DNA of 64,000 bases from Candidatus Aminicenantes bacterium (GTDB lineage: Bacteria; Acidobacteriota; Aminicenantia; Aminicenantales; Saccharicenantaceae): positions 38,859 through 102,858 of the forward strand of contig CAWCND010000009.1 of assembly GCA_963796835.1 (NCBI GenBank). Direction: 5' to 3'. Below, piece by piece: positions 8,822-63,348 of this stretch; position 1 is the first letter of the stretch, and each line of letters starts with the position of its first letter. The translations under genes were made by a program, and so were the position numbers. The notes under the pieces are model-generated. The model ran no database searches. It had not been told where the DNA came from and saw nothing but the letters and a program-made list of their open reading frames with translations.

Positions 8822-9573
8822 TTCTGCAGGATCTCCTCTGCGAGTTTTAAATAGGCCTCGGCTCCCTTGGACTTTATATCATAAAGAACGATAGGCTTGC
8901 CAAAGCTCGGCGCCTCGGCCAGGCGAATATTTCGCGGGATGACCGTTTCGAAGAGGATGTGCTTGAGCGATCTTCTGACCTCATCCGCCACCTGCTTGGA
9001 GAGATTTGTCCGCTCGTCGTACATCGTCAGCAGGATCCCTTCGACGGCCAGCCTGGGGTTGAAATACGTCCGGACGGTCTCGAGCGTCTGGAAAAGGTCC
9101 GGGATCCCTTCCATGCAGAAGAATTCCGTCTGGACCGGGATGATCAGCGAATCGGCGGCCGTCAGAGCGTTGATGGTCAGGAAGCCGAGAGATGGAGGGC
9201 AATCAATGAGGATAAAATTGAAATATCTGCGGATCTTTTCGACAGCTTCCATGAGCCTTTTTTCCCTCCGCTCGGAGGTAAAAAGCTCGGCCTCGGCCCC
9301 GGATAGCTCTGGAGAGCATGGGCAAAGGTAAAAGTTGTCCAATTCGCATCCCGAGATGCATTCCATCAGGTCCGTCCCGTTCATCAGACCCTGATAAACG
9401 CCCTTGCCGGGTTCCTTTGGCTTGGCCAGTCCGAGCGTCGACATCCCCTGGGGGTCAAGATCCACGAGCAGGACCCTTTTGTTCTTGAGCGCCAGGCAGG
9501 CTGAGAGGTTTATCGCGGTGGTTGTCTTCCCAACCCCGCCCTTCTGATTGGCGACCGCGATGATCTTATTCAT
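8818..9573 (-). CDS. parA: Chromosome partitioning ATPase ParA/Soj
   Basis: The protein begins [23 protein letters not shown] with a deviant Walker A motif. The likely start is the MNK codon, internal to ORF 8818..9606. Confidence 0.9.
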
Positions 9574-11449
9574 CTTCTGGTTCAGGCCATGTTTCACGTG
9601 GAACATCGGCGCCCAGGCGGGCCTTTTTCCTCTGGACTTCCAGATAAAGGTCGACGTTATGTATGGCGGCCGGAGTCATTCCGGGGATCTTTCTGGCGTC
9701 GCCCAGCGTCCCGGGCCTCAGCTTCTCGAGCTTCTCGATGGCCTCCCGGGTAAGGCCGGGCACTTGTTTGAAATCAAGCTTCACAGGGATCCTGGTCCGG
9801 TCCGTTCTTGCGCTCCCGGCAATCTCCTTCTCCTGCTTCCTGATATAACCCTCGTATTTTATTTCCGATTCTATGAACCTCATGCTCTCGCTGCTCAGAT
9901 CTTCGCTGAATTTACCATATTCTAGCACATTTTTAAGGGTATTCTCGGGTTTTTTTAATTGATCGAACAAAGAAATCGTCTTCCCTGAACCGGATTTTGT
10001 CCTTTTTACCCTCAAGAACTTGATGACTCTATCTATTTTGTCCCATTTTCTCAGGGATTTGTCCCAATCGTCCGGCCTGATCAGCCCAAGCTCATGGCCG
10101 TACTTCATGAGCCGCCTGTCCGCGTTATCGATCCGGAGGATAAGCCTGTGCTCAGCCCGCGAAGTGAAAAGCCGGTATGGCTCCTCGACGCCTCGGGTGA
10201 CCAGATCGTCAATGAGCACCCCGATGTAGGCTTCGCCCCTTCCCAATATGAACGGCTTTTTCCCCATGATCTGGAGCCCGGCGTTGATCCCGGCCATGAG
10301 CCCCTGGGCAGCCGCTTCTTCGTAACCGGAAGTCCCGTTGATCTGCCCAGCTAGGTACAGCCCCTTGATCTTCCTTGTTTCGAGGGTATGGAGAAGCTCG
10401 GTAGGGGAGACGGCGTCGTATTCGATCCCGTAGGCTGGCCGCAGGACTTTGGCCCTTTCTAAGCCGGGAATCGTGGCCAGGATCTCCTTCTGGACCTCAA
10501 ATGGAAGGCTCGAGGACATCCCGTTGACATAGGTTTCCGCTGTTTCAAGCCCCTCAGGCTCCAAGAAGAACTGGTGGCGGGCATGATGGGGGAACTTGAC
10601 CACCTTGTCTTCGATGGAGGGGCAGTAGCGGGGTCCGATGCCTGTTATCTTTCCGCTGTACAGGGGAGATTTATCCAGGTTCTTGCGGATCACGGCGTGG
10701 GTTTGGTCGTTCGTATATCCCATATGGCAGAGGACCTTATTTTCGACCGGATTCCGGGTCCGGAAGGAAAAGGGCACGGGCTCGTCGTCCCCCGGTTGCG
10801 CCGTGAAGATCTCCCAGTCGATCGTGTTGCGGTCGAGGCGCATGGGAGTGCCGGTTTTCAGCCGGATCCCCCTCAGGCCCATTCTTTTCAACGCCCCTGC
10901 CAGCTCGACGGAAGGCGGTTCGTTGGCCCGTCCGGCCGGATAGCTTTCGAGCCCGATGTGGATGAGCCCGTTGAGAAAGGTCCCCGGGGTCAGGATGACC
11001 GCCCGGCTGTCAAGGGCCGTCCCGTCCAGGGTCCGGATACCCAAGGCCCGGCCTCCCTTGACGACGATATCGGAGACAATGCCCTGGAAGACCGTCAGGC
11101 CGGGAATTCCCTCAAGACGGCGTTTCATGGCCAGCCGGTAGCGGGCCTTGTCGCATTGGGCCCTGGGGGCCTGGACCGCTCCTCCCCGGCTCCGGTTGAG
11201 GAGCCGGAATTGGATGCCCGTCTCGTCCGTCATCTCCCCCATCAGCCCCCCCAAGGCGTCGATCTCGCGAACAAGGTGACCTTTGGCCAGGCCGCCGATG
11301 GCCGGATTACAGGACATCTGGGCGATCGTATCGAGGTGGATCGTGACCAGACAGGCCCTGAGGCCCATGGCGCAAATGGCGGCCGCCGCTTCGCAGCCGG
11401 CGTGGCCGGCCCCGACCACGATAACATCGTAACTCTGGACGTTCTTCAT
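9566..11449 (-). CDS. mnmG: tRNA uridine 5-carboxymethylaminomethyl modification enzyme MnmG (GidA)
   Basis: The protein begins [16 protein letters not shown] with an FAD-binding site. The 627 aa GidA family architecture is conserved. Confidence 0.95.
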
Positions 11450-11457
11450 CCGCCCGC

Positions 11458-12840
11458 CTATTTTCCTACGCAGAAACGATCAAAGATCTCGGCCATGACG
11501 TCGTCCGACCTGATCTCTCCCGTCAGCCTCCCGAACAGGGAGATCGCTCTCCTGAGCTCCTCGACGTATGTCTCCTCCGTATGCCCGGCCTCGAGCAGCC
11601 GGCCGGCTTCGCGGAGCGCCTCCCTGATGTCGAGGAGGATGTCCTTCTGCCTCGCATGGAGGATCACCTCCTCCCCGGCATCGACCGGAGGGACGAACGC
11701 CCGGCGTATCTCCGCCCTCAGCTTATCCAGATTCGTCCCCTTGAGGGCGGAGACTTCAATGAGAAGGACACTTCCCGACTGGGCCCGGAGCCTCTGCTTG
11801 TCGATCCGGCAGGGAAGGTCGGATTTGTTGAGGACCAGGAGGGATTTTTTCTCTCTGAATCTCATGATCAGCCGATCGTCTTCATCGCTTTCCGGCCTGG
11901 ACCTATCGAGGACGATGAGGAGGCCGTCGGCCTGCCGGGCAATCTTTTGTCCCATGAGGATCCCCTTTTTCTCGACCGGATGGGCGGGTTTTCCCAGGCC
12001 GGCCATGTCCACGAGGTGGAAGACGAGGTCGTCGATGACAATCTCCTCCCTGAGGTAATCCCTGGTCGTCCCCGGATAAGGGGTCACGATAGCCCTGTCT
12101 TCTTCGAGAAGAGCGTTGAACAGAGTCGACTTTCCGACGTTCGTCCGCCCGGTGATTGCCAGCGTTAGCCCTTCGTTTAGGGCCTTTCCCGCCTGGAAGC
12201 TTGCAATGAGCCTCTCCAGTCCGGCCATCAGGGCCTCCAAAACCTTGCTCTGCCTGGCCGGTGTCGTCCTCAGACCCTCTTCTGGGAATTCGATCCCGGC
12301 TTCCACCTGGGCGACCAGGCGGACGAGGTCCGACCTGAAGCCACGGATCTTCCTTGAAAGACCCCCCGAAAGTTGCCGGGACGAGATCCGCGCCTGGGTC
12401 AGGGACGCCGCCCGGATGAGATCGTTGACGGCTTCTGCCTGGACGATATCCAAGCGGCCGTTGACATAGGCCCTGAGGGTGAATTCCCCCTGGCGGGCGG
12501 GCCTCGCTCCGGCCTGTACGCCCAGCCGGACGGCCTCCTCGAGGACGACAGGGCTCCCATGGCAGCTCAGTTCGACCACGTCCTCCCGGGTGTAGGAATG
12601 AGGGGCCTTGTAATAGGTCATAAAGGCCTCGTCGAGGACCTCTTTTCTCGAGCGGTCGATCAAATTACCCAAGACGGGACGCCTGACGGGAAAATCGCGG
12701 CCATGGCCGCGGCCGCTGCCCCCGCCAGGCTTGAAGACCCTTCCGGCCACCGCCAGGGCCTTTTTTCCGCTGATCCGGACGATCCCAAGACCACCGATCC
12801 CGGGAGGGGTCGATATGGCAATGATCGTGTCTTCGAGCAT
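11458..12840 (-). CDS. mnmE: tRNA modification GTPase MnmE (TrmE)
   Basis: Contains the G-domain motifs [10 protein letters not shown] and DMAGL, and the C-terminal CxGK motif (FCVGK). Confidence 0.9.
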
Positions 12841-13259
12841 GTTCAGGGGCTTTCCGGCTCCCCATTGTAGAAGACGCGACGGCATTAGTAAATAGACCAT
12901 CCATCGGTCTGGTCAGGGATGAACGAAACGACCACAATGCGGGCTTATCCTTCAAGGAGCACCGATTTAGGATTAGGGCTGAGTGGATGGCTGAAGCGAT
13001 AGAAGTTAAATGCGCAGGGGGTGTTCCCGGAGCCGCCCAGAAGAAGAGTTCAGGACTCGATCCGGATATTTTCCAGAAGTGCGGCTCCGCCACACTTCTG
13101 CCGGTCGCTCCTCAGAATCCGCCCCGCTAAGAAGCGGGACTGCCCGCTTCTGGACAATTACGGCAAGAGGCGGGACGGCTCCCTGCCCCAGGGAATCCCC
13201 CGAGCTCAACTCTATTAAAAGGCTGAAGCCGTCCTCGTCGCCCCATAAGGAAGGGGAGT

Positions 13260-13901
13260 CTATTTCGAGGCGCGGAAGACCTTGACTTTCTTCAGGAACC
13301 CTTCGCCGATGCTCTCACTGGTGATGCCGGGGACCTGGTTGACGGCGATGTGGACGATCCGGCGCTCATAAGGGTTCATGAAATCCAGGACCTCGTCACG
13401 GCCGGACGCGGAAACCTGCTCCGCGACCTTCTGGGCGAACTCCTGGAGCTTTTTCTCCTTCCGCCGCCTGTAGAATTCGCAATCCACCTGGACCTTCACG
13501 GGCGAAATCTTGTTGAAGACGTGTTGGAAGGCGAGCAGGAGCGCTCCGTCGTTGCGGAGGAGGAGGTTCTTGTCGGGGCCGTCAAAGATGATGAAGACGA
13601 TATCCGGGCGCTTCTTGATCTGATACGTCAGCTCCAGGGGAAAATGGGGCATGACCTTTTCCAGGAACAGGTCGACCGCGTTCTCTTCCTCTTCCTTTAT
13701 CGCCCAGGCCCGGATCACGATCTCCTTGCCCTTGATGCCGAAGAGCTTGGTCTTCTCCGTGACGATCTCGTAGTTGAATTTCCCCCGGGGGAGCTTCAGC
13801 CGGTCCTCGGCCAGGCTGATGGCCTCCTCGAGGTTCCGGCCCTTATATTCCTGTCCCTCGACGGCCGGTTGTCCGTTCTCAGTTTTTTCTTGGTTTTCCA
13901 T
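13260..13901 (-). CDS. jag: Jag/KhpB (EloR-like) RNA-binding protein with KH and R3H domains
   Basis: The gene sits downstream of yidC. The R3H-like C-terminus (ERRIVHIAV) is present. Confidence 0.8.
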   Translation of the reverse strand: MENQEKTENGQPAVEGQEYKGRNLEEAISLAEDRLKLPRGKFNYEIVTEKTKLFGIKGKEIVIRAWAIKEEEENAVDLFLEKVMPHFPLELTYQIKKRPDIVFIIFDGPDKNLLLRNDGALLLAFQHVFNKISPVKVQVDCEFYRRRKEKKLQEFAQKVAEQVSASGRDEVLDFMNPYERRIVHIAVNQVPGITSESIGEGFLKKVKVFRASK

Positions 13902-15549
13902 CGGGTTCTCTCTTATGGCGGCCCATCATGCGGTTCATGATGGCCTGCTGGGCGATCTGAAGCACGTTCGTGGTCAGCCAGTAAAGGACCAGGCCGCTCT
14001 GGAAGGTCATGAAGAAGAACGTCATGATGACGGGCATGATCAGCATCATTTTGGCCTGGGAGGGGTCGGCCGAGGTCGGCGTCATCTTCTGGGAGATGAA
14101 TTGGGTGATACCCATGAGGACAGGCGTCACATAGTAAGGGTCCTGGACGGACAGGTCCTGGATCCAGAGGCCGAACGGGGCGTGGCGGAACTCGACCGAA
14201 GCCACCAGCATCCGGAAAACGCCCCAGAAGATCGGGAGCTGGATGAGGAGCGGGAGGCAGCCCCCGGCGGGGTTGACCCCGTGCTCCTTGTAGAGCTTCA
14301 TCATCTCCTCGTTCATCTGGCGCCGCTGGTCGATGTCGGACTTGGCCTTTTTGTACTTGGCCCGGATGGCCTTGACCTTGGGCTGGAGGTCGGCCATCCT
14401 GGACATGGACTTCGTCGAGCTGTAGGTCAGGGGGAAGAAAATGATCTTGATGACGAGGGTCAGGAGGATGATGGCCATGCCCCAGTTGGGGACGAGCTTG
14501 TAGAAGAACTTGACGGACACGAGGAGGACCTCGGCGATGCTGCCGAACACGCCGAAATTGATGACTTTTTTAGTTTCGTGGCCGAAGGCCTTGAGGGCGT
14601 CGAAATCCTTTGGCCCGATGAAAGCCGCCTGCGGTTGGGAGACCGAGAGGAAGTAGGCCGCCGCCTTGCCCTGGCCCTGAGACTCCTGGAGGAACGCGGC
14701 TTGTCCCCTCTGGGCGGGCAGGATGAAGATCGCTGCGAAATAATTTTCCTCGTAGGCGGCCCAGTCGACGAAGTTAAAGGTGCTCGTTTCGGCCTTGTAT
14801 TTCTTGACGTCCATCCGGTTGACCTTGCCGCCGGTATAGATAGCGGCTCCGGTGACCGCCGTGAATTTACCCTTTAGCTCGGCCGGAGAGGGGTTGCCGA
14901 TGCCCGGTCCCCAGAGGAGGGAGGGCACAATCTCCTGGCCGTTCTTCCAGACGTGAAGCTCGATCTCCATCTGGTAGGTCCCGCCGGTGAAGCGGAAGAT
15001 CTTCTCGGCCCGGACGGACCTTCCGTCGGAATAGGAAAATTTGATCTCATCCTTCTGGCCGTCCTTGAGGATGAGGCTCGCCCGGGAGGCTTCAAACAAG
15101 GCCGAATTAAGGGCCGCGGCAAGGGCGGCGTCGTCGCCGCCCAGGGAGAAGGGGTATCGTCCGATCTCCTGGGCCGTCTCCGGGACGAGCTCCAGGGGCT
15201 CCTTCTTGTCGTTCGTGTGTTTCTTGAGCTTCCAGCTCTTGAGGACGCCGCCTTGATTGCTCCAGGAGGCCTGATAAAGAGGGGTATCGACCGTGACTTC
15301 CTGCTTGGCCTGGGCGACCGTGGCCTTGAGGCCTTGTGAGGAAATGGGCTGGCCGGAAGCCTTGGGTTCCGGCGTAGCCGGGGGGACCTGGCCCCCGGGC
15401 TGGGCCTGTGCCTCTGCCTGTTTTGCCACAGGGACGGGCGCGCTCACGGGCGCTGTTTCCGTCTGAGGCTTGGGCTTCACGAAGAGAAGCTGGTAACCCA
15501 TCAGGACCAGGAAGGAAAGGACGATGGCCAGGATCAATCGTTTTTCCAT
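13879..15549 (-). CDS. yidC: Membrane protein insertase YidC
   Basis: N-terminal TM helix, large periplasmic domain, and the conserved C-terminal 60 kDa IMP core (PLLIQLPIFWGVFRML). Confidence 0.95.
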   Translation of the reverse strand: MEKRLILAIVLSFLVLMGYQLLFVKPKPQTETAPVSAPVPVAKQAEAQAQPGGQVPPATPEPKASGQPISSQGLKATVAQAKQEVTVDTPLYQASWSNQGGVLKSWKLKKHTNDKKEPLELVPETAQEIGRYPFSLGGDDAALAAALNSALFEASRASLILKDGQKDEIKFSYSDGRSVRAEKIFRFTGGTYQMEIELHVWKNGQEIVPSLLWGPGIGNPSPAELKGKFTAVTGAAIYTGGKVNRMDVKKYKAETSTFNFVDWAAYEENYFAAIFILPAQRGQAAFLQESQGQGKAAAYFLSVSQPQAAFIGPKDFDALKAFGHETKKVINFGVFGSIAEVLLVSVKFFYKLVPNWGMAIILLTLVIKIIFFPLTYSSTKSMSRMADLQPKVKAIRAKYKKAKSDIDQRRQMNEEMMKLYKEHGVNPAGGCLPLLIQLPIFWGVFRMLVASVEFRHAPFGLWIQDLSVQDPYYVTPVLMGITQFISQKMTPTSADPSQAKMMLIMPVIMTFFFMTFQSGLVLYWLTTNVLQIAQQAIMNRMMGRHKREPDGKPRKN

Positions 15550-39638: not shown

Positions 39639-39671
39639 CGTTCCTTCCTCGTTCTCCCTATATCACCAGAG

Positions 39672-39744
39672 CTGGGGCGGGAGGATTCGAACCTCCGAAT
39701 GACGGAGCCAAAGTCCGTTGCCTTACCGCTTGGCTACGCCCCAG
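39672..39744 (-). tRNA. tRNA-Gln (anticodon UUG)
   Basis: The minus-strand sequence TGGGGCGTAGCCAAGCGGTAAGGCAACGGACTTTGGCTCCGTCATTCGGAGGTTCGAATCCTCCCGCCCCAG folds as a cloverleaf and closely resembles E. coli tRNA-Gln. Anticodon loop CUUUGGC. Coordinates are +/-1. Confidence 0.85.
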
Positions 39745-40810
39745 CGCCGACTTGCGCCCAATAGCCCTCACGCGGCAGGGTTTCCACGAGGCGGGCCTCC
39801 GACTTGCCACGGAGCAGGTCGAGAGCCTTCCGGGCCTGGTTCCTGTCGGTGAAGAGCCCGAAAACCGCCGAGCCCGAGCCGGTCACCAAGGACAAGGCCG
39901 CGCCCTGGCCCCGGAAAAACCTCTTGAACACTTCAAGTTCGGGATATCGCCGGAAAATGACGAGTTCCAGGTCGTTTTCCAAAAGACCGAAATCTCCGGT
40001 ATCCAGAAAACGCATAATTTTACTGTCTTTGGCGGGTGAAGTCAACTCCTCGAGTCCCCGGCCTGAATGCCGGGGCTTGTTTGGGGTTACTAAGCCGGGC
40101 AGGATATAATTGTCTTCAGATTTCTCTATCGCCCGGCTAGTACTCGGGGAGCAGCAAGGATTATGTAATATATTTACTGCTCCCCGTAGTAACCCTGAGC
40201 CTCGCTTCTTGTCCCCGACTTGAAAGGCGGGGCTTAGCGTCGGCGAACGGGTCAAGGATGCCCCGAGGCCCGCATAGATCTCGGCGGTGTGGATCGGGTA
40301 CGGCGGGAAGGCGAGAACACAGGGGAGGGGCGGGAGATCGGGGAGCCGTTTCAGGACTTCGCCCCGGGACTCCCCGAGGCAGAGCCCGCCCTGGAGGAAA
40401 TAAGGGACATCGGACCCGAGGAGGAGCGCCAGCTCGGCCAGGGTTTCTGCCCCGAGCCCGAGGGACCACAGCTTGTTCAGGGCGAGAAGCGTGACCGCGG
40501 CGTTCGCGCTCCCGCCGCCGAGTCCCTTTCCGGGCGGGACGGTTTTGGCCACCCGGATGCGCACGCCGGCCGGGCTCCCGGTCCGCTCCCGGAGCAGACG
40601 GGCCGCCCGGAAAACGAGGTTCGTCGGATCCCAGGCCACCGAAGGCTCGTCGCCCTCGAGACGGATCGATCCGTCCGCGGCGGGCTCCAACTCGATCGTG
40701 TCGGCGAGAGCGACCGACTGGAAAAGGGTCCTGATGTCGTGGTAACCGTCGGGCCTCTTCCGGACGATCTCCAGGCCGAGGTTGATCTTGGCGAAGGACC
40801 TAACCTTCAT
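39734..40810 (-). CDS. ispE: 4-diphosphocytidyl-2-C-methyl-D-erythritol kinase IspE carrying an in-frame ~70 aa repeat-element insertion
   Basis: The GHMP kinase N-terminal domain (PPGKGLGGGSANAA) and C-terminal domain share one frame. A ~210 bp insert (40041..40255) encodes no stop codon. Confidence 0.85.
   Translation of the reverse strand: MKVRSFAKINLGLEIVRKRPDGYHDIRTLFQSVALADTIELEPAADGSIRLEGDEPSVAWDPTNLVFRAARLLRERTGSPAGVRIRVAKTVPPGKGLGGGSANAAVTLLALNKLWSLGLGAETLAELALLLGSDVPYFLQGGLCLGESRGEVLKRLPDLPPLPCVLAFPPYPIHTAEIYAGLGASLTRSPTLSPAFQVGDKKRGSGLLRGAVNILHNPCCSPSTSRAIEKSEDNYILPGLVTPNKPRHSGRGLEELTSPAKDSKIMRFLDTGDFGLLENDLELVIFRRYPELEVFKRFFRGQGAALSLVTGSGSAVFGLFTDRNQARKALDLLRGKSEARLVETLPREGYWAQVGAGA
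40041..40255. mobile_element. MITE-like hairpin-rich repeat element (copy A), in-frame within ispE; flanked by GTCAA on both sides
   Basis: Near-identical termini to copy B at 42091..42398. Four predicted stem-loops. Internal 8-9 bp inverted repeats GGTTACTA/TAGTAACC bracket a ~95 bp core. Confidence 0.7.
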
Positions 40811-41914: not shown

Positions 41915-42049
41915 TCAAACATTACTTTCGGGCTCTTCCTGGAACTTCGGGATCTTGGCCTTTTCTTTCTCCTGGCCGAGGGAGAAACCCAGGAAGAAAA
42001 CCGAGCCGAGCGTCAGCAGCGCCAGCAGGAATTTGAAGAAGCCTTTCAT
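41915..42049 (-). CDS. Small hypothetical membrane peptide (44 aa) with RBS GGAAGG
   Basis: Hand-translated: MKGFFKFLLALLTLGSVFFLGFSLGQEKEKAKIPKFQEEPESNV. Confidence 0.35.
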   Translation of the reverse strand: MKGFFKFLLALLTLGSVFFLGFSLGQEKEKAKIPKFQEEPESNV

Positions 42050-42090
42050 CTCAACCTTCCGTCCTCCTTTATATCAAAAACGAGGAAAAA

Positions 42091-42398
42091 GTCAAACCCT
42101 CGAGTCCCCGGCATGAATGCAGGGGCTTGTTCGGGGTTACTACGGGGAGCAGTAAGTATATTACATAATCCTTGCTGCTCCCCGAGTACTAGCCGGGCGA
42201 TAGAGAAATCTGAAGACAATTATATCCTGCCCGGCTTAGTAACCCTGAGCCTCGCTTCTTATCCCCGCCCTGAAGCTCCACGGACTTACCCCGACTTTTG
42301 CGGTCTTTGGAGCGCCTGTCCCCGGAGCGGGGGTTCGCTATTCCTCTGTCCCGCGAAGGGGGTTGAAAGGCGGGGCTTAGCGTCGGCGAACGGGTCAA
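42091..42398. mobile_element. MITE-like repeat element copy B (intergenic), with the central ~95 bp segment inverted relative to copy A and a ~95 bp internal partial duplication in the right arm
   Basis: Left arm (gtcaaaccctcgagtccccggcatgaatgcaggggcttgttcggggttacta) and right arm (gtaaccctgagcctcgcttctt...ttgaaaggcggggcttagcgtcggcgaacgggtcaa) match copy A. The core is the reverse complement of copy A's core. Confidence 0.7.
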
Positions 42399-42455: not shown

Positions 42456-43924
42456 ATGGCCATGAAAACAAGGTCTGCCCTGATGATCGCGCTTCTCATC
42501 GCCCCGCTTGTCGCGGGCGAGGTCGATAAGATCAAGCCGGCGTACGTGGCCGGCCAGTTCTACGAAAAGGACCCGGCCCGGCTGTCCGCCGAGATCGATC
42601 TCTTTCTCGCGAACGCCAAGCCGGCGGCCCCGGTCTCGGGGAAGATCCGGGCTTTGATCGTCCCCCATGCCGGGCATGTCTTTTCCGGCCAGACGGCCGC
42701 TTACGCTTATGCCCTCGTCAAGGGCGGCCCTTATGAAACGGTCGTCATCATCGGCCCTTCCCATCATTTCTGGTTCCAGGGATGCTCCATCTATCCGGGG
42801 GAAGGATTCGCGACGCCGCTCGGCACGGCCCGGATTGACTCGGCTCTCGCGCAGGCCATCAGCAAGGCGGGCGGTTTCACCTTCGTCCCCGAGGCTTACT
42901 TCGTCCCGGGAGCGGATGTCCAGGAGCATTCGGTTGAGGTCCAGATCCCGTTCATCCAGAAGGTCCTCCCCGACGCGAAGATCGTCCCGATCGTCATGGG
43001 CGCTCAAGTCAAGCCGACGGTCCAGGCCCTGGCCGCGGCCCTGGAAAAAGCCTGCGCCGGGAAAAATGTCCTCGTCGTCGCCTCGACGGACCTCTCCCAT
43101 TTCCTGTCCAAGAGCGCGGCCGCCGCGACGGACGCCGATACGATCTCCCTCATCCGGTCGGTCAAGACCGACATCCTCCTCCGAAAGGTCGAGGCCGGCG
43201 ATAACATCATGTGCGGCGGAGGCCCGGTCGTCTCCGCCCTTCTCTACGCCAGGCGGACGGGACCTCTCCGGGTCGACATCCTCAAGCACTCAGACTCCTC
43301 CGATTCAGGAGGTCCGGAGGACCGGGTCGTCGGTTACCTGGCGGCGGCCCTTGTCTCCGGCCCCGAAGCCCCCTCCTCGGAGGAGTACTCGCTCACGGCG
43401 GAAGAGCGGGCCGAGATCCTCGGCTTGGCCCGCTCGGCTGTCAACGAATTCGTCGGCCGGCAGGCGGTCGTCGCCTATCAGACCGTGGATCCGAACCTCC
43501 TGGCCCGGCGGGGCGTTTTCGTGACGCTCAAGAAGCGCGGCGAGCTCCGGGGCTGCATCGGTTTCATCGAACCTGTCGCCCCGCTCTATCAGGCCGTCAT
43601 CCAGGCTTCCATCTATGCCGCCACAGAAGACCCCCGCTTCCCTCAGGTCGGTCCAGGAGAGCTCAAGGACCTCGCCTTCGAGGTCTCCGTCCTCACGCCC
43701 CTCAAGGAGATCACGGATCCCGACCTCGTCCAGGTCGGCCGCCATGGCATCGTCATCTCGAGAGGCGGACAAAAGGGCGTGCTCCTGCCCCAGGTCCCCG
43801 TGGAGAACGGCTGGGACCGCAAGACCTTTCTCGAGGAAGGCTGCCTCAAGGCCGGCCTCCCGGCCGACGCCTGGAAAAAGGGGCCAAGATCTCCGTCTTC
43901 GAGGCCATCGTCTTCCACGAATAG
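42456..43924 (+). CDS. Fused AmmeMemoRadiSam system protein B (MEMO1-like) and protein A (AMMECR1 domain); C-terminal frameshift near 43880
   Basis: N-terminal half carries MEMO1 motifs (YVAGQFY, IVPHAGHVFSG, IIGPSHH, EHSVEVQIPFIQ). C-terminal half is AMMECR1 (RRGVFVTLKK.GELRGCIGF, GIVISRGGQKGVLLPQV). Confidence 0.8.
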
Positions 43925-44048
43925 GCCCCGCGCGTCCTGCCCCGGCTCCGGCGATAGCTTCCGCTCCCATTGAGGTTGAGCTCGCGGGATTCCCTTTATC
44001 GCTTCAGCCATTTCCGAGGGTTCGACGGGGCGGAAAGATGGTTTTTTC

Positions 44049-47354: not shown

Positions 47355-48092
47355 ATGACGAAGAAAGACGCGCTGATATCAGCCTTGGTCCTCGTCTGCG
47401 CGGCCGGCCTCAGCCGGTGCCGCCCGCAGGCCGGCCCCGTCGGAGTCCCTCCCGGGGCTCCTGCCGAAACGCCGGCCGTCCCAACTGCGGGGCCCTTGAG
47501 CGGCTACGAGACGATCGTGGTGGATTTCAAAGAGGTTGAGCCCATCCCGGACCTCGACCTCGGCCGCAGCCTCTCCGACTACGTCGAGGCGGAGCTGCGG
47601 AAGGTGTTCAAGGGCACGGTCTTCCGTCCCGCCGTCCGCCGGGATCCGGTGGCCCCCGGTGACGACAAGGACCTTTGGGCATCGGCCGGAGCCGGACTGA
47701 AGAAGGCCGTTTTTCTTGTCGGGACGGCGGCCCTCCGCGGTCAAGCGCAGAAGGCCCTGCTGGCGTCCGGCGTCCCGGCCGACGGCCCCTTCAAGCTCGA
47801 GAACCAGGGCCTCGTGGAGCGAAAGCGTTTCACCTTGGCCATCGAGTGGTCCCTGATCGACGTTTCAGGCGGCCGGACCATCCTGAAAAAAAGCTTCAAG
47901 GAAACGAGGACCTACAGCGACATCCAGCAGACGGCCGAATTCGCCCTTTTCGACCTCCTTCCCGCCGTCAAGGCCAGGCTTTTTCCCGCCCTTTTCGGCA
48001 GCCCCCGCGTTGAAAAGCGAGGCCTTATCCCGTCCTGGCCCAGCGGTCTCCCCGGCCCGCCGGAACGCGGTTTCCCCCAAAAAAAAGCTTGA
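47355..48092 (+). CDS. Secreted hypothetical protein
   Basis: N-terminal signal peptide. No recognisable domain. Confidence 0.45.
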   Translation: MTKKDALISALVLVCAAGLSRCRPQAGPVGVPPGAPAETPAVPTAGPLSGYETIVVDFKEVEPIPDLDLGRSLSDYVEAELRKVFKGTVFRPAVRRDPVAPGDDKDLWASAGAGLKKAVFLVGTAALRGQAQKALLASGVPADGPFKLENQGLVERKRFTLAIEWSLIDVSGGRTILKKSFKETRTYSDIQQTAEFALFDLLPAVKARLFPALFGSPRVEKRGLIPSWPSGLPGPPERGFPQKKA

Positions 48093-48156
48093 AATGGGGG
48101 GGTCAAAATGCTATGATGGCCGAGCTTTTCCCGAACCCGCCGTCGCCCGGGGAGGG

Positions 48157-48188
48157 TTTTCCACAGATGTGGAAAATTCTGTGGAAAA
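48157..48188. promoter_or_regulatory. DnaA-box cluster (TTTTCCACA / TGTGGAAAA x2) in the dnaA promoter region: predicted oriC part 1 and autoregulation site
   Basis: Three 9-mers, each one mismatch from TTATCCACA, two of them as an inverted pair, lie 15-45 nt upstream of the dnaA ATG. Confidence 0.6.
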
Positions 48189-48201
48189 ATTAATAGCACC
48201 C

Positions 48202-49533
48202 ATGGAACCTGAAGAAAAACAAAATCCTTGGATCCAACTCCTGCGGGCCGTCGAGGGGAAGATCGACCCGAACAGCTTCGAGACCTGGTTCGAGCCGACG
48301 AGCTTCATCGGCCAGGACCAGGAGTGCCTGTACATCAAGGTCCCCAATTCTTATTTCCGCGACTGGCTCTCCTTCCACTATTCGAACATCATCAGCGATT
48401 GTTCCAAGGAGCTTTTCAAGAAATCGCTGGAGGTCCGCTACATCTACGACGACACTCCCTCGGCCTTCATGCGGCGCTCACCCGAGGACCGGAAATCGAA
48501 GCAGGGCCTGTCCATCAATCCGAACCTCAACCCGAATTACACCTTCGAGAATTTCGTCGTCGGAAGCTCCAATCAGTTCGCCCACGCCGCCGCCCTGGCC
48601 GTCGCCAAGAACCCCGCCAAGTCCTACAACCCCCTCTACGTCTACGGAGGGGCCGGTCTCGGCAAGACCCACCTCATGAACGCCATCGGCCACTACTCTC
48701 TCGAGCACAACCACCGCCTCAAGATCCTCTACGTGACGACCGAAAAATTCATGAACGACCTCGTCAACCACCTCCAGTATGGAAAGATCCTCGAATTCCG
48801 CGATAAATACCGCAGCGTCGACGTCTTGCTGATGGACGACATCCACTATCTCTCCGGCCGGGAGCGGACGAAGGAAGAGTTTTTCCACACCTTCAACCAC
48901 CTTTATGACAGCCAGAAGCAGATCGTCATCTCGAGCGACTGCGCGCCCAAGGAGATCCCCCACCTCGAGGACCGCTTCCGCTCCCGCTTCGAGTGGGGGC
49001 TGATCGCCGACCTCAAGCCTCCCGACATCGAGACGCGGATCGCCATCCTCCAGAAAAAGGCGGAGGCCGAAGCGGTATCCCTGCCCGAATCCGTGGCCCT
49101 GTACATCGCCGACAAGGTCCAGTCCAATATCCGCGAGCTCGAGGGCTACCTCCGGAGGGTCATCGCCTTCGCCTCCCTTAAAGGCGAGAAGATCGACCTC
49201 GACCTGACGAAGGAAGCCCTGAAAGGCCTTCTAGACGCCTCGACGACGATCATCACTGTGGAAAAGATCCAGAAGCTCATCTGCCACAAGTTCAAGATCA
49301 AGCCCTCCCAGCTCAAGAGCAAGAACAACTCCCCCAAGATCGCCTTCCCCCGTCAGATCGCGATGTACCTGGCCAAGCAGATGACGAAATCCTCACTTCC
49401 GGAAATCGGCAAGAAATTCGGTGGAAAACATCACACCACCGTCATCCATTCCGTCCGGAAGATCGAGAAGCTTCGGGCCGACGATCCCGAATTCAACAAG
49501 GAAATCAACAGTCTCATCGTCTTCATCCAATGA
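48202..49533 (+). CDS. dnaA: Chromosomal replication initiator protein DnaA
   Basis: N-terminal domain, AAA+ Walker A (GGAGLGKTHL), sensor motifs and the C-terminal DNA-binding domain (KIAFPRQIAMYL, HTTVIHSVRKIE). Confidence 0.95.
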   Translation: MEPEEKQNPWIQLLRAVEGKIDPNSFETWFEPTSFIGQDQECLYIKVPNSYFRDWLSFHYSNIISDCSKELFKKSLEVRYIYDDTPSAFMRRSPEDRKSKQGLSINPNLNPNYTFENFVVGSSNQFAHAAALAVAKNPAKSYNPLYVYGGAGLGKTHLMNAIGHYSLEHNHRLKILYVTTEKFMNDLVNHLQYGKILEFRDKYRSVDVLLMDDIHYLSGRERTKEEFFHTFNHLYDSQKQIVISSDCAPKEIPHLEDRFRSRFEWGLIADLKPPDIETRIAILQKKAEAEAVSLPESVALYIADKVQSNIRELEGYLRRVIAFASLKGEKIDLDLTKEALKGLLDASTTIITVEKIQKLICHKFKIKPSQLKSKNNSPKIAFPRQIAMYLAKQMTKSSLPEIGKKFGGKHHTTVIHSVRKIEKLRADDPEFNKEINSLIVFIQ

Positions 49534-49559
49534 GCATGAACAGCGAGATGGGCCGGTTA

Positions 49560-49650
49560 TTCACATTTCCACAGGATCTTATTATTTTCTTTATGTATTT
49601 GATATGTCTTAATAAGAAGAATATAAATAAATCCGAGAACACGACGCGAA
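49560..49650. other. Predicted oriC DNA-unwinding element: ~80% AT stretch with an adjacent DnaA-box-like 9-mer (ATTTCCACA) between dnaA and dnaN
   Basis: tcttattattttctttatgtatttgatatgtcttaataagaagaatataaataaatcc in a 65% GC genome. Confidence 0.5.
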
Positions 49651-49660
49651 AGGTGCCGAC

Positions 49661-50762
49661 ATGAAATTCTCAGTCCCGAAAGAGATCTTTCTCGATGAGC
49701 TTCAACTCCTCCAAGGCATCGTCGAAAAGCGGAACACGATGCCGATCCTGGCCAACATCCTGATGAACGTGTCCGAAAAAGAAGTCGACTTAACGGGGAC
49801 GGACCTCGAAGTCGGCTTGAAGACGCACTTCTCCGCGGAGATCGAGAAGCCGGGCGCGATCACGGTCAACGGGAAGAAGATCTTCGAGATCGTCAAGTCG
49901 CTTCCGGAGGGCCAGGCCGTGACGGTCGAGCAGAAGGCCGAAACAATCGAGATCACAGCCGGGGAGAGTGAGTTCAAGGTCTTGTGCATGCAGAAGGAGG
50001 ATTATCCCCAGGTCCCGGAGGCCAAGTTCGAGAAAAAGATCGAGCTCCCCCTCAAAGACGTGAAGGCCATGATCGACCGGGTCTTTTACGCGATCACCCA
50101 GGAGCAGCGGTACTACCTCAACGGCGCGCTCCTGTCGCTCAAGAACAAGCACATGGAGCTCGTGAGCACGGACGGCCACCGGCTGTCGTATACGGCCAAG
50201 GCGGAGGAGCGGGCTCAAGGTCGAAAAAGAGCTCAGCGTCATCGTGGCCAAGAAAACCCTGAGTCGAGCTCCGGAAATTCGAGGACGAGGAGGTCGAGTT
50301 CGACCTCGACGAGAACAACCTCTTCTTCAAGGTCGGAGCTCGGACCCTGATCTCGCGGATCATCGAAAGCAAGTTCCCGAATTACCAGGCGGTCATCCCG
50401 AAGGACAACCCGAACCTCCTGTCCCTATCGACGGGAAGACCTGGCCGGGGCCATCCGCCGGGTCTCCCTGCTCTCGGCCGAGCGGTCGAAGGGGCATCAA
50501 GTTCTACCTCGAGAAGAACCGGATGAAGCTCTTCTCCTCGAACCCGGAGATCGGCGAAGCCAGGGACAGGCTGGATGTCGAGTACAAAGGCCAGGACATC
50601 GAGATCGGCTTCAACTCGCAGTACCTGCTGGACTTCCTGACGGCCGTCACGTCGGAGCGCGTGACGTTCGAGATCAAGGACGAGAACAGCGCCGTCCTCC
50701 TCAAGCCCGAAGGCGAGGAAGAGCTCAAGAATATCTATGTCCTGATGCCGATGAAGATCTGA
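49661..50762 (+). CDS. dnaN: DNA polymerase III beta subunit (sliding clamp); at least four indels between 50200 and 50520
   Basis: The N-terminal domain (49661..50220) and C-terminal domain (50500..50762) are in frame. The middle (LPKFEDEEVEFDLDENNLFFKVGARTLISRIIESKFPNYQAVIPK) is readable only in a third frame. Confidence 0.85.
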
Positions 50763-51270
50763 GCCGCCGGCCGACGAACGCGGCCAGCCAGGCGGCGAGC
50801 CTCTCGACCGCCGCCCGGACTCCGGGGGTCAGGGCCTCGCGGGCTTCAAAAGCCCCCGGTTCTATCCCGAGAACGACGACCCGGCAGCCGGTCGTCTTTT
50901 CCAGGTATGCGGCCAGCGTCGATAGCGGCGTCCTGTGCGTCGAAACGTCCTCGTCCGGGATCGAGGCGGGATCGAGAGCGAAAACCGTCCCCGGGGGATA
51001 TCCCCCGGCGGCCGCGTCGATGACGAGGACGTGGGACGGCCCGAAATCCCTGACCGCTCCCGTGAAATTCTCCGGCGCCTCGTGGGCGATGAAGATCTTC
51101 AGGCGGGGGTTGGCCGACGGCCCGGCGAGCCGGCCCAGCGCCTCGGCGCATAAAACACCGGCGGCGTCATCCCCCCGGGACACGTTCCCCACGCCGAGGA
51201 CAGCCAGCCTCTCCGGCCGGCCGAGCTCCCGCGCCAGCCACGCCTTCCACGCCGCGCGCTTCTTCATCAC
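50725..51270 (-). CDS. hycI: [NiFe] hydrogenase maturation endopeptidase (HycI/HyaD family)
   Basis: VLGVGNVSRGDDAAGV..., the size, and its position after the hydrogenase structural genes. Confidence 0.75.
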   Translation of the reverse strand: MMKKRAAWKAWLARELGRPERLAVLGVGNVSRGDDAAGVLCAEALGRLAGPSANPRLKIFIAHEAPENFTGAVRDFGPSHVLVIDAAAGGYPPGTVFALDPASIPDEDVSTHRTPLSTLAAYLEKTTGCRVVVLGIEPGAFEAREALTPGVRAAVERLAAWLAAFVGRRLRSSSASGHRYS

Positions 51271-51808
51271 CCCTCATTATACATAAAAGAGGACCCGTCC
51301 CGCTTCGTTGCTCTGTCACACTTCCGGAAAATATCTGGATCAAGAGGGACTGTCCCTGAAAGCGGGAAAGCCCCCTTTACCGGTGACGCGGATGCGGGGA
51401 GCGTGAGGCGGAGCGATGATGGATGGAGACGCACACGGAGAGGACGCCTCCGGCGGGACGAGAGCCAAAGGCCGAAGGGGAAGGGCTGGAACGTCATGTG
51501 CGGCTTAGCGCAAGCCGCACTCTGGAGTGAAGGCCATCCCCGAGGCCTTCGGCTGCTCGCTGGGGCAGGACCCCCGACCTTGACATACGAGGGATTGAGG
51601 CGAGCGCAGGCCTTGGGGACGTCCGCCGCCGTCCTGCTCCGGGCAGCCGGCCAGTGCGCCCCCCTCCGGGCCCAAAGCGGTGGCGCCGGGGTCATCCGAA
51701 AGACCCCGTTTGGAGAGGGACCCGGCGGGATTTCCGACGGGGGAACCGGGACAGGTTCCCGGGGCCGGGGGATAAGGGTGACCCGGGTGCCACCCCAATT
51801 GAGTGTGC

Positions 51809-52244
51809 TTAAGCCTTGGGGGCGGCCTCGGGAGCGGTGCCCGGCTTCGGAACGGCCGCCTTGGGCTTGATGACGGCCCGGGCGTAGACCCATGCCTTCT
51901 TCAGGTTGTGCCGGTCGAAATCGGCGATCTCGAAGAGGCTGTCCATGTCCATGGCCTTCGGGGTCGTCGGGCAGGAATCCACGCACTGGGCACAGTGGAT
52001 GCAGCGGTCGTTGTGGATGACCATCCGGAACGTCTTCTCGGCCTCGTTGACCGACGTGATCTCGATGGCCTCGGCCGGGCAGTCGCGCTCGCAGGCCCGG
52101 CAGACGATGCACATGTCCGGGTGGAGGAACGGGGTGCCCCGGAAGTCCTTCGGGCACTTCGAGCTTCTTGAAGGGGTAATCGACGGTCGCCGGTTTTTTG
52201 AAGAGACTGCGGAGGAGTTCGGGGAGGAAGGCCGCGATTTTCAT
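51809..52244 (-). CDS. NuoI-like 2x[4Fe-4S] ferredoxin subunit of the membrane hydrogenase (frameshifted)
   Basis: CIVCRACERDCP and CIHCAQCVDSCP cluster motifs. The N-terminus MKIAAFLPELLRSLFKKPATVDYPF lies in another frame. Confidence 0.75.
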
Positions 52245-56443: not shown

Positions 56444-57926
56444 CTATAATCCCCACGAACGGATCACGGCCTGGACCCCCTCCGCCAGCACGCCGGCGGC
56501 GGGCTGGATCCAGGATTTGATGGTCACCGAGAAGAAGATGCCGATCCCGACGCAAAGGGAGGCCAGCAAGACGGTCGAGGCGGTCATCCAGAAGGGCGCC
56601 TCCTTCACGGCGGCCCATCTCTCGTTGAGCTTTCCGAAGAAGGCCTTGCGCTGGATGAGGAGGTAATACCAGAGGGTCAGGACCGAGGCCAGTACGGCGA
56701 TCAAGGCGAAGACGGGGTGCCCCGCCTGGATGAGGGCCATGATGATGAGGAGCTTGGACCAGAAGCCGTTGAGGGGCGGGACGCCGGCGATCGACAGGGA
56801 GCCGATGAGGTTCGTGGCCGCGGTGAAAGGCATCCGCTTGGCCAGGCCGCCCATCTCGTCGAGGTTGCGGGTGCCGGTGGCCTGCTGGATGGAGCCGGAG
56901 GTCAAGAACAGGAGCCCCTTGGCCAGGGCGTGGTTGAACAGGTGGAAGAGCCCGCCGGCGATGCCGAGCGGCGTCCCGAGGCCGATCCCCAGGACGATGT
57001 AGCCGACCTGGCTGATCGAGGAATAGGCCAGCATCCGCTTGATGTCTTTCTGGCCCAGGGCCAGGAAGGCGGCGACGACCAGGGATACGGTGCCGAGGGT
57101 CATCAGGACACTGGACAGGGCCGGCGTCAGGCCGAAGACGTTGAGGAAGACCCGGGTCAGGGCGTAGACGCCCGAGACCTTGATCAGCAGGCCCGACAGG
57201 ACGGCCGAGATCGGGGCCGGGGCCGAGGGGTGGGCGTCCGGCAGCCAGGCGTGGAAGGGGACGAGGGCCGCCTTCAGCCCGAAGCCCATGATGAAGAGGG
57301 CCGCGCAGATGCCGACGACCGGGCCGGCGTTGAGGTCTTGGAGGGCCCTGGCCACGGCCGGCGAAGCTCAGGCTGCCGGTCATGCCGAAGATGACGGCGA
57401 TGCTGACCAGGATGAAGGCCGAGGCCACGACGGACAGCAGGAGGTACTTGAAGGCCGCCTCGAGCTCGTCCTGCCCGAGGCCGAAGGCCACCAGGGCGTA
57501 GGAGGCGACGGCGGCCACCTCGAGAAAGACGTAGATGTTGAAAAGGTCCGTGGCCAGGACGAGGCCGTTCATCCCGGCGATCATGATCAGGAGCAGGGCG
57601 TAATAATTCGCCTTGGCCCCGTAGTGCTCCATGTAGTCGATCGAGAACAGGCTGACGCAAAGCCCGACCAGGGAGATGGCCATGAGCATGAGCAGGCTGA
57701 ACCCGTCGAGGGCCAGGCGGAGGTTGACGGTCTCCCCGAGCCAGGTCAGCTTCTGGAGGGCGGGTCCGTTCCCGATGAGCGGCCGGCCGACGGCCACGGC
57801 GTAGACGAGCAAGAAGAGAAGGGCCGCGTTGGCCAGCAGGTCCGGCACGACCCTCCGGGAGACCTTGCCGACGAGCGGCAGGACTCCCGCCACGATGAGC
57901 GGCAGGGCAACGAAGAGAATGATCAA
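56444..57926 (-). CDS. NuoM/N-like antiporter subunit (Proton_antipo_M family), one frameshift
   Basis: ORF 56444..57355 (C-terminal) plus the N-terminal part of ORF 56280..57926. Confidence 0.8.
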
Positions 57927-57979: not shown

Positions 57980-59854
57980 CTATTTCGTGAGCATGGAGAT
58001 GACCCCGGCCACGATGATGAGGCCGGCCAGGCACCAGGCCAGGTAATTCGCGTAGTGCCCGTTGTGGGCCTTCTTCAGGATCCCGGTGAACTTCCCGCCC
58101 ACGGCCGTGACGGCCTTCTCGAAGACGAAGTCGATGGGCCGGTCGACCGCCTTGAACAGGACCATGGACAGCCCCCGGAGGAACTTCACGCCCTGCTCGT
58201 AGAGGTCGAACACCCGCGCTTCGGCCAGATCGTAGAGCTTATGGAGGACCGGGCAGGTTGTGGACCGGCTCGGAGGCCAGGTAGGGCTTGCGCCCCGACT
58301 TCCGGAAGCCGTAGGCGTGGAGGAGGAAGGCTAGGACCAGGCAGGCCAGGGAGATGAGGGCGATGGGGTTGACGAGGGCCAGGGCGTGGGCCGTGAAGTC
58401 GACAGGCTCGCCCGCCTCGACGTGGCCCGCCAGGATCGGCTGGATGAACAGGGTCAGGGGCAGCTTGTTGAAGACGCCGAAGATGATGCAGAGCAGGGCC
58501 AGGATCGAGGATCGGGATAACGACGGGCGCCTGGCTTTCCTTGACCGGCCGGGACCTCCTTCGTCCGTTCGCCGAAGAAGACCGAGTGGCCGGCCTTGAG
58601 GAACGAGGCGAAGGTGAAGATCGCCCCGACCCAGGCGGCGATGGCGAAGACGATGTAGCCGGTCTCGATCGCGCCGTGGAAGACCATCTCCTTGGAGACG
58701 AACCCGTTGAGCGGCCAGACGCCCGAGATGGCCAGGGCGCAGACGGAGAAGCCGAACGCGGTCAAGGGCATCTCCTTGCCAGAGCCGCCGAGCTTCTTGA
58801 GCTCGGTCGTCCCGGTCCGGTGCTCGACCGAGCCGGCGCTCAGGAAGAGCCCGCACTTGTACATGGCGTGGTTGATCATGTGGAAGAGGCCGCCGGCGAT
58901 GCCGATGGGGATGCCCGTGCCGATGCCCAGGACCATGTAGCCGACCTGGCTGATGGCGTGGAAGGACAGCAGCTTCTTGAAGTCCTTCTGGATGAGGGCC
59001 ATGAACACGGCCAGGACGATGGTCACCGCGCCGATGGTCATCATCAGGATCGACAGGCCGCTGCCCGGCTCGATCTTGAAGAAATCGAGGGTGATGCCGG
59101 GCCAGCAGGTAGATGCCCAGGAGCTTTTCGAAGGCGGCCGGCAGGAAGGCCATGAAGGTCACGGGCGCGTCGAGGGCGGCGTCGGGGATCCAGGTGTGGA
59201 AGGGCATGGCGCCGGCCTTGCCGATGGCGCCGATCATCATCAGGACGAAGGCCGCCGCGGCCAGGCCCGTCGGGCTCGACCGAGATCTCGGACATCGTCA
59301 GCGTGCCGGACAGCGACCAGAGGAGGCCGATGCCCAGGATCATGCAGAAATCGCAGAAGCCGCTGATCAGGAGGGCCTTGACCGCGGTCCGGCTCGACGT
59401 CGGCTTGCCGCCGATGGTGATCAGGCCGTACAGGGTCACGAGCAGCCCTTCCCAGAAGAAGAGGAGGGGCACGAAATTGTTGGCCAGGACCGCGCCGTTG
59501 GCGAAGGCGGCCGTCAGGAAAACGTAGGCGTAATATTCCCGGACCCGCGGGGCGTCCTTCATCTTGACCGTCGAATAGAGCGTGATCAGGACGAGGAACC
59601 CGCGACAGGGCGAGCAGGATGAAGCTCGAAAAGTGGAACAGGCGAAGCTCGAAATCGATCCCCATTCCGAGCCAGGGGACGCTCAGCTCGAGGTTCTTCA
59701 CCGAGAAGAAGACGAACGCGTAATAGAGGAGGGCTGCGGACCCGGCGACGGCCAGCAGTTCGCGGAGGAGCCTGACCCCCTTGGGGATGAGGAGAAGGAC
59801 GACGGCGAGGACCGCGGGCAGAAGGACCGGCAGAAGGAGCATTTTGGGCGTCAT
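57980..59854 (-). CDS. NuoL-like antiporter subunit including the C-terminal long helix and last TM (frameshifted)
   Basis: The N-terminal fragment runs in ORFs 59240..59866 and 59044..59562, the core in 58454..59044. The separate 77 aa ORF 57980..58213 matches the NuoL C-terminal helix and TM16. Confidence 0.7.
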
Positions 59855-62591: not shown

Positions 62592-62851
62592 GAAGCGAGG
62601 GCCCGTCCCTGAGAGCGGGCCAGCCCCTCTTGATCCAGATAGTTCCCAGAAGTGCGGCTCCGAGATGCTCCGCCACACTTCTGATGGTCGTTCCTCGGAA
62701 TCCGCTCCCTGCCGGTCCTGCCCGTGTGCGTTCCTGTCAGGCCTTCGGGGATGGCCTCCACTCCAGAGCGCGGTTCTTCACGCCTCCCCGAACCCTTCTT
62801 TCTCGGTGTCTGCGGAACTCGCTCAGCACTCCCTGACCCGCCCCGAATCTT

Positions 62852-62882
62852 AAAAAACGGGTTTCCTTTCTCCCGTTTTTTT
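62852..62882. terminator. Bidirectional rho-independent terminator (AAAAAACGGG...CCCGTTTTTTT)
   Basis: An A-run precedes and a T-run follows the hairpin, in the convergent intergenic region. Confidence 0.55.
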
Positions 62883-63348
62883 CCGAGCCTCCGCACTCTG
62901 TTGAATTTTGCTCAGACATCCTCGCCGCCCTCATGGGAGGGAATACCCAAGAGAGGTTTCCTCCCATGAGGATTCCCTCGAAAAACGGTTCGGAGAGGCT
63001 AAACCGCGCATGACGTTCCGGCCAATCCCCGAAAGCCCTCTTTAGCAGGGCACCGGCGGTCGGTCCCGTCGGTCGAACCCTCCAGAATTGTTGTCAAAAG
63101 GAATAGCCGGACGCAGGGGGGATGTCCCGGAGAAAACATTGAGCGCGACGCGGGCACGGTCCCTCGCCCCTTGGGCGAGGGGAGCGGAGCGATCACAGAG
63201 TGGGATTCCTCGCTGGGGAATCCCACGTTTTTCGGAGGGACTCTCCCCGAGTCCGCGACCTCGAGAAGGGAGGCCATTTCCCGAGGCCCTGAGATGGGAC
63301 ATGCCGGGACAGGACCCGTCCGGCCTTTTCGCCATCTGATAGGCCGGC

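Follow-up and report, generated by a model that had tools for sequence, protein, structure and literature searches.

In a 64-kb stretch of DNA from a Candidatus Aminicenantes genome (the whole of which is called the window here), two copies of a composite palindromic repeat carry the same 100 bp core in opposite orientations between co-linear arms. The explanation that we consider probable overall is that small mobile elements have nested in one another and that the two orientations are fixed variants, not the states of a working switch. The composites are made up of small mobile repeats of Candidatus Aminicenantes that nest in one another and belong to families so far undescribed; a search of the literature returned nothing on such repeats in Aminicenantes.

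Architecture of the two composite repeats

Self-comparison of the window aligned the left arms (40039-40102 and 42089-42152, 86% identity) and the right arms (40171-40224 and 42221-42274, 83%) of the two composites, here called copies A and B, as direct repeats, and matched 40084-40198 to the reverse complement of 42131-42245 over 115 nt at 98%. The inverted match is far beyond chance, since the next-best inverted pair in the window spans only 55 nt at 71%. These comparisons bear out the co-linear arms and reverse-complemented core of a preliminary description made from the sequence. Between the exact cores there is one mismatch in 100 positions, and both are framed by GGGT-TA-CTA...TAG-TA-ACCC. 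The net insertion amounts to 210 bp at copy A (108 bp of outer element and 102 bp of core) and to 303 bp at copy B (108, 102 and a further 93 bp), and both copies fold well, with z about -5.

Copy B was rightly placed between divergently transcribed genes. The gene downstream of it, which had been called an AmmeMemoRadiSam gene, is a fusion of Memo and AMMECR1 domains, and no radical-SAM domain was found in that ORF. The features discussed below are as follows, in window coordinates.

39671 to 39743, minus strand: tRNA-Gln, downstream of ispE
39734 to 40810, minus strand: ispE, 358 codons, with GHMP kinase domains (Pfam), open through copy A
40041 to 40089, plus strand: left part of the outer element of copy A, with boundary GTCAA at 40041-40045 and the left arm
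within 40041 to 40089, plus strand: left-arm hairpin of copy A, CCCCGGCCTGAATGCCGGGG
40088 to 40089, plus strand: first TA of the central target of copy A
40090 to 40189, plus strand: nested core of copy A, 100 bp, CTA...TAG, in the '+' orientation of the family, with core hairpins AGCCGGGC...GCCCGGCT and CGGGGAGCAG...CTGCTCCCCG and AGTACT between them
40190 to 40255, plus strand: right part of copy A, with the duplicated TA at 40190-40191 and the right arm, which carries the hairpin CCCCGACTTGAAAGGCGGGG
40251 to 40255, plus strand: second boundary GTCAA of copy A
41915 to 42049, minus strand: 44-aa ORF adjoining the left end of copy B, with syntenic gene calls
42091 to 42139, plus strand: left part of the outer element of copy B, with GTCAA at 42091-42095, the left arm and the first TA at 42138-42139
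42140 to 42239, minus strand: nested core of copy B, 100 bp, opposite to that of copy A, from which it differs at 1 base in 100
42240 to 42274, plus strand: duplicated TA and proximal right arm of copy B, as far as TGAA in the hairpin loop
42275 to 42367, plus strand: third nested repeat of copy B, 93 bp including the terminal TGAA, GCTCCACGG...GGGGGTTGAA
42368 to 42398, plus strand: distal right arm of copy B and second boundary GTCAA at 42394-42398
42456 to 43973, plus strand: Memo and AMMECR1 fusion downstream of copy B, with a frameshifted C-terminal tail

The core and the arms are separate repeat families

The core constitutes an independent repeat family. When one genome per species was scanned for exact matches to its central 20-mer, the core was found in 55 places at 54 loci, in 15 Candidatus Aminicenantes metagenome-assembled genomes (MAGs), some of which are labelled Acidobacteria or Eubacteriales. 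The outer arms surrounded it at locus L048 only (1/55 in this genome scan), the other cores standing without arms, and common flanks were seen in just three pairs of core loci, the remainder being unrelated. The conserved unit stops sharply at TA-CTA...TAG-TA, and nothing is conserved further out. TA stands at both ends in 54-55 of the 55 copies, with T as the preceding base in 41 and A as the following base in 43: the target is a TA, preferably inside TTAA, and this TA is duplicated. The ends of the core read TACTAAGCCGGGC...GCTCCCCGTAGTA, a terminal repeat that is perfect over CTA/TAG and beyond that matches at 9 of 13 and 13 of 20 positions.

Core copies within a genome are near-identical, and those of different genomes differ, chiefly in loops rich in AT. 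Among 48 variants the stems never change, and hence no covariation was seen that could speak for or against a structure. The core is small and non-coding, and the only ORFs that read through it are chance ones. Rfam searches at gathering and permissive thresholds returned only the tRNA-Gln, with no match on either element. No long pair of core ends, such as an autonomous parent would have, was present in 1.4 Mb of examined loci, and viral contigs held no copy of the core or of the outer family.

At orthologous sites of different species (L037/L045 and L016/L046), the core is far more conserved than its flanks; in L037/L045 there is 1 mismatch in 104 in the core against 12-13% divergence in the flanks. 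This pattern points to a constrained core sequence or to homogenisation of some kind.

The arms are a second, independent family, whose element is about 103 bp long and usually lacks the core. A metagenome search with 19 nt of the right arm returned at least 120 loci, and the 127 outer copies that we examined are the matches listed together with the window copies, L005 and L048. No core is present in 121 of these 127 (among the matches listed), where the centre is GGGGTTAACCC or a close variant of it; the rest comprise five composites and one copy cut by a contig end. The centre of the element is the palindrome GGGTTAACCC, with TA in the middle, around which two copies of the hairpin module CTCG..TCCCCGSC-WTGAAW-GSCGGGGCTT are arranged as direct repeats. 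Accordingly, the arms align with each other at a score of 35 in direct and 16 in inverted orientation, and the element has no terminal inverted repeats. GTCAA marks both boundaries of the consensus and of the listed copies, apart from a few variants such as GTAAA, and the element always lies in one orientation relative to it. The left arms of some copies (L062, L065, L094 and L102) are expanded by extra CCGGG-rich hairpin units, and one expanded-arm copy is translated within an IspE protein (P0027, 344 aa).

Filled and empty sites, and the origin of the inverted junctions

Neither window site is occupied in the closest relatives, represented by the syntenic contigs L175-L178, in which the gene order is the same as in the window (Memo-AMMECR1, the 44-aa ORF, two small ORFs, ispE and prs). 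Each empty site holds a single GTCAA/TTGAC: the B site reads ...GAAAAAGTCAATTTGC... or ...GAGGAAAAAGTCAATTTGCTTTTTAT..., and the ispE site TCC TTGAC T TCA. In the window, the whole element lies between two copies of GTCAA/TTGAC at each site. On these comparisons both window sites are recent insertions, and the data would fit a 5-bp target duplication as well as an element with a 3' end identical to its target.

Filled and empty sites can be compared for the core as well, with GGGGT-TA-[100 bp]-TA-ACCC on the one hand and GGGGTTAACCC on the other (the latter in 121 outer copies among the matches listed), and together with the duplication of TA they argue that the core moves. For both families, mobility is deduced from filled versus empty sites and from the distribution of copies, no autonomous transposase partner having been found in the loci examined.

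Copies A and B are very probably nested mobile elements whose inverted repeats are a by-product of the nesting. The core would have inserted into the central TA of the outer palindrome, duplicating this TA, and the junctions GGGT-TA-CTA...TAG-TA-ACCC would arise whichever way it entered. The '9-bp inverted repeats' GGGTTACTA/TAGTAACCC consist of half the target palindrome, the duplicated TA and the CTA/TAG ends of the core itself. Because insertion of the core into a palindromic TA yields them, they are a by-product and not recombination sites. An inversion by a recombinase or by replication slippage across 8-9 bp repeats, which the preliminary description had put forward, gained no positive support, as the palindromic target, the TA duplication and the CTA/TAG ends explain the repeats. 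Its alternative suggestion of two orientation variants of a composite element was correct: core and arms are two nested mobile families.

A programmed switch, in which a serine or tyrosine recombinase flips the core for phase variation of the flanking genes, is a reading that we find very improbable. The short inverted repeats that flank the segment, and the position of copy B between divergently transcribed genes, are what would recommend it. However, the repeats are accounted for by insertion into a palindrome, a Pfam search revealed no recombinase or transposase among the 40 largest ORFs that the 64-kb window contains, and a promoter consensus scan found no site in either core.

Copy A within ispE

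Copy A lies inside ispE, a normally essential gene of the isoprenoid pathway, in antisense orientation. The insert (40046-40255) is 210 bp long and adds 70 codons with no stop between ...GASLT and SPAKD..., giving a protein of 358 aa where nearly all relatives have 288 aa. The orthologues P0002 and P0003, which are without the insert, have 288 aa and are 89-92% identical; P0002, the nearest of all (91-92% identity), comes from the syntenic contigs L175-L178. The AlphaFold model of the 358-aa protein has a mean pLDDT of 52, and of about 25 over the insert, which is too poor for placing the insert.

In either arrangement of the composite, exactly one frame out of six is open. The frame used by ispE is open in the A arrangement, and flipping the core in silico ends translation at codon 224. 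Provided that ispE is needed, the A arrangement would be the only viable one at copy A, and the orientation seen there would then also be constrained by selection for an open ispE. A programmed switch is difficult to reconcile with this location, in an essential-type gene whose protein the other state would truncate.

A distant clade of IspE proteins (P0024, P0027, P0029 and P0040, 311-344 aa) carries a peptide of the outer element at the same TTGAC site, and the lineages between the window and this clade are without an insert. As the distant clade carries the outer element and the intermediate lineages do not, the ispE site has probably been hit more than once.

A third repeat nested in copy B

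The additional sequence in the right arm of copy B had been taken for a partial tandem duplication of ~95 bp. An extra piece is present there (93 bp, 42275-42367), but a tandem duplication it is not: its similarity to the arms is that of shuffled sequence, 158 of 300 shuffles scoring as well, and it matches repeats in L054, L098, L116, L135 and L140. It is a third nested repeat, which sits at the TGAA in the loop of the right-arm hairpin. A related insertion is found in the same outer-arm loop in L112, and insertion at that loop is seen in only 2 of the 127 outer copies (among the matches listed).

This third small family (GCTCCAYGG...GGGGNTTGAA) inserts at TGAA in hairpin loops of outer elements, and further mini-palindromes of the CACTCATGAG type are nested in outer arms.

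Composites at other loci and the history of orientation

Six composites were found, two in the A arrangement (copy A and P0121) and four in the B arrangement (copy B, L048, L150 and L159). P0121 was recovered by an exhaustive protein search with the core-encoded peptide, word-indexed searches with element-encoded peptides having given nothing. Its N-terminus, ...GGDKKRGSG-LLRGAVNILHNPCC...LPG-LVTPNKPRHSCRGLEGL..., corresponds to the A arrangement, and its locus is not ispE but lies upstream of a satP/YaaH-like gene. L048 was considered as an orthologue of the window locus and rejected, as its genes are those of a different locus.

Both A cores carry AAT (Asn), where AGT or AGG stands in the three B cores that could be read. 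Across the loci and genomes of this small sample, orientation and a linked base difference go together, which argues against ongoing or frequent flipping and is what would be expected of fixed lineages. Cores at orthologous sites have the same orientation in three pairs of loci. Both observations count against a programmed switch, and the two orientations would on this evidence be fixed variants. We lean towards a history in which orientation was set at insertion, in A and B separately, possibly via a short hop between them.

Against fixed variants set at insertion stands the consideration that a composite spreading as one unit would need one inversion to give both orientations. Such a history would comprise a single nesting, spread of the composite via its outer ends and one later, non-programmed flip of the core, either by recombination or template switching between the 9-10-bp inverted junctions or by excision and re-insertion at the same TA, with both forms persisting. 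We regard it as doubtful, though a serious contender. In its favour, composites are frequent in one outer subfamily, the one closest to the window, where they make up 5 of roughly a dozen copies (assigned by eye), at unrelated loci, whereas a mere 1 of 55 cores in the genome scan lay in an outer element, a contrast that would fit spread as one unit. The rare third insertion seems to be common to P0121 (A arrangement) and copy B (B arrangement), at one and the same site, a hint of common ancestry. Correia elements are reported to invert in situ (review PMC10969869). The junctions left by an inversion would, moreover, be identical to those observed. On the other side, ordinary insertion in either direction gives the same product, a 9-bp repeat is a poor substrate for recombination, and an independent occurrence of the third element at that loop is known from L112. 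The arms of the composites depart from the subfamily consensus by private changes only, with no derived changes in common.

The loop variant CAGGATA was considered as a marker confined to composites, and hence of a single origin, and was rejected: cores with CAGGAT also occur outside outer elements (P0131, P0132 and P0136), which likewise tells against a single inversion. Within genomes, the arms diverge more than the cores, which again favours separate insertions. Copies A and B differ at 8 of 111 arm positions and 1 of 100 core positions (p=0.037), and pooling with L150 and L159, both of one metagenome, gives 14/175 in the arms and 2/146 in the cores (p=0.008). The corresponding argument from age, that the cores are younger than the arms, is weakened by the conservation of the core above its flanks at orthologous sites, and such constraint (L037/L045) is a point in favour of a single inversion.

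That the nested core flips in place, by recombination across the 9-10-bp junctions or by transposase-mediated excision and re-insertion at the same TA, seems to us unlikely. If it were true, recurrent on/off variation would occur at many promoter-adjacent copies, with only the A form surviving in ispE; the process would parallel the inversion reported for Correia elements, with the difference that the phylum is uncultured and the element nested.

Window context and quality of the assembly

The window covers the chromosomal origin region, with parB, parA, gidA, mnmE, jag, yidC, dnaA and dnaN (7973-15549 and 48010-50350). The dnaN gene (49661-50780) needs at least two frame changes, the C-terminus of the Memo-AMMECR1 fusion is frameshifted around 43880, and other genes in the window are split, for example that of CTP synthase (5753-6859). 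The assembly looks indel-prone, possibly a long-read consensus, and its single-base details need care.

An error of assembly or polishing that misoriented a hairpin-rich repeat at one site could appeal to these frameshifts. Indel errors, however, do not give a clean 100-bp inversion, and the ispE frame is open only in the arrangement observed. The B arrangement is present in three independent short-read assemblies (L048, L150 and L159) and the A arrangement on another contig (P0121). As both arrangements thus occur in other assemblies, an artefact is scarcely credible.

Two other repeats were seen in the window. A non-coding stretch is present as mutually inverted copies at 51271-51810 and 62617-63032; it is 92% identical to sequence beside the composite of L048 (L048 2992-3198) and also occurs in L026 (4122-4214). 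A direct repeat of 300 nt (56819-57118 and 58757-59056, 72% identity) lies inside Proton_antipo_M genes and probably represents paralogous antiporter or hydrogenase membrane subunits.

Relation to promoters

At its left end, the outer element reads TTGAC(T/A) in the outward direction. Of 79 distinct outer copies (L055-L174, among the matches listed), 37 have TAnnnT 16-18 nt past TTGAC, against a shuffle expectation of 3.5 ± 1.8; none of 500 shuffles reached 37. The spacing suggests that the outer family sits at the -35 position of sigma-70-like promoters, as judged from promoter-like hexamers. At copy A, TTGACT-17-TAAAAT (40045..40017) lies inside ispE and faces the tRNA-Gln, its TTGAC being the insertion site of the outer element. 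At copy B, TTGACT (42096..42091)-16-TATAAA faces the 44-aa ORF; this pair was read by eye and is below the scan threshold, and the promoter consensus scan gave no passing site either at the B site or at its empty counterpart. With the pentamer flanking the insert on either side, TTGAC is kept beside its original spacer.

Of 49 cores outside outer elements, 7 have a -35-like hexamer (TTGnnn) upstream of the left TA, at a distance of 16-18 nt (1.2 expected), and in 19 the TA at the right junction is continued by nnnT (p=0.0005). A gene start lies to the right of the core in 38 cases versus 13 (p=0.0006). The TA target of the core is often the TA of a -10-like hexamer.

Such positions raise the alternative that the core is mainly a functional multi-copy element, for example a leader RNA or a protein-binding site near promoters, whose orientation is itself functional; this would be compatible with mobility. 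Gene starts on its right, the coincidence of its target with -10-like hexamers, stems that do not vary across 48 variants and conservation far above the flanks at orthologous sites all fit such a role. We nevertheless think it quite unlikely as the main account, given that no covariation was seen and no Rfam match found, that copies are near-identical within a genome and different between genomes, that filled and empty sites with TA duplication show movement, and that in copy A the core is antisense in a coding gene.

Relation to known repeat families, and significance

Nested insertion, the reading preferred here, brings the two families close to several known kinds of small repeat. Like the Correia elements of Neisseria (CREE), which are TA-duplicating miniature transposons (MITEs), the core is small (about 100-150 bp), non-coding, multi-copy and flanked by a duplicated TA, and it lies mostly just upstream of genes in either orientation. 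Correia elements differ from it in having a 26 bp terminal repeat, where the core has one that is perfect over 3-5 bp (13/20 imperfect), and the core differs in its two different hairpins, in that no internal promoter or IHF site was found in it, in the phylum of its host and in showing no sequence similarity. By this analogy, the core may behave as a Correia-type, TA-duplicating MITE.

The outer element resembles palindromic elements of the IS200/IS605 type. As in IS200/IS605-derived PATEs and REP/BIME sequences, there are no terminal inverted repeats and similar direct hairpins stand near the ends, and, as in PATEs, the element keeps one orientation relative to an asymmetric pentanucleotide, here the GTCAA that borders both ends. 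Unlike the case of PATEs, a search of the 40 largest window ORFs gave no Y1 (HUH) transposase. To our knowledge, a central palindrome and a position at a -35-like TTGAC are not described features of the PATE or REP/BIME families.

Copy A recalls the Rickettsia palindromic elements (RPE) and other in-frame MITEs, such as QMITE of Coxiella, in that a palindromic repeat is translated within the gene of a housekeeping enzyme. It is unlike RPE in consisting of two nested elements, in the length of its insert (70 codons) and in belonging to a family that is mostly intergenic rather than intragenic.

The composites share with invertible promoter switches (fimS with its 9-bp repeats, hin and the invertons of Bacteroides) a segment of ~100-300 bp, short inverted repeats and the occurrence of both orientations. 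They are unlike invertons in that the orientations are found at two different loci, the repeats come from the insertion itself, the segment holds no promoter and no recombinase is encoded among the 40 largest ORFs of the window.

These findings open no new kind of biology. The nesting of these repeats, their position at promoter-like hexamers and the apparent tolerance of a composite as an in-frame insert of 70 codons in ispE are of interest for specialists in mobile elements and in genome annotation. A small transposon that lands in the middle of a palindrome gains perfect short inverted repeats and so mimics an invertible switch, and insertion into palindromes is a likely source of false positives in genome screens for phase-variable inversions.
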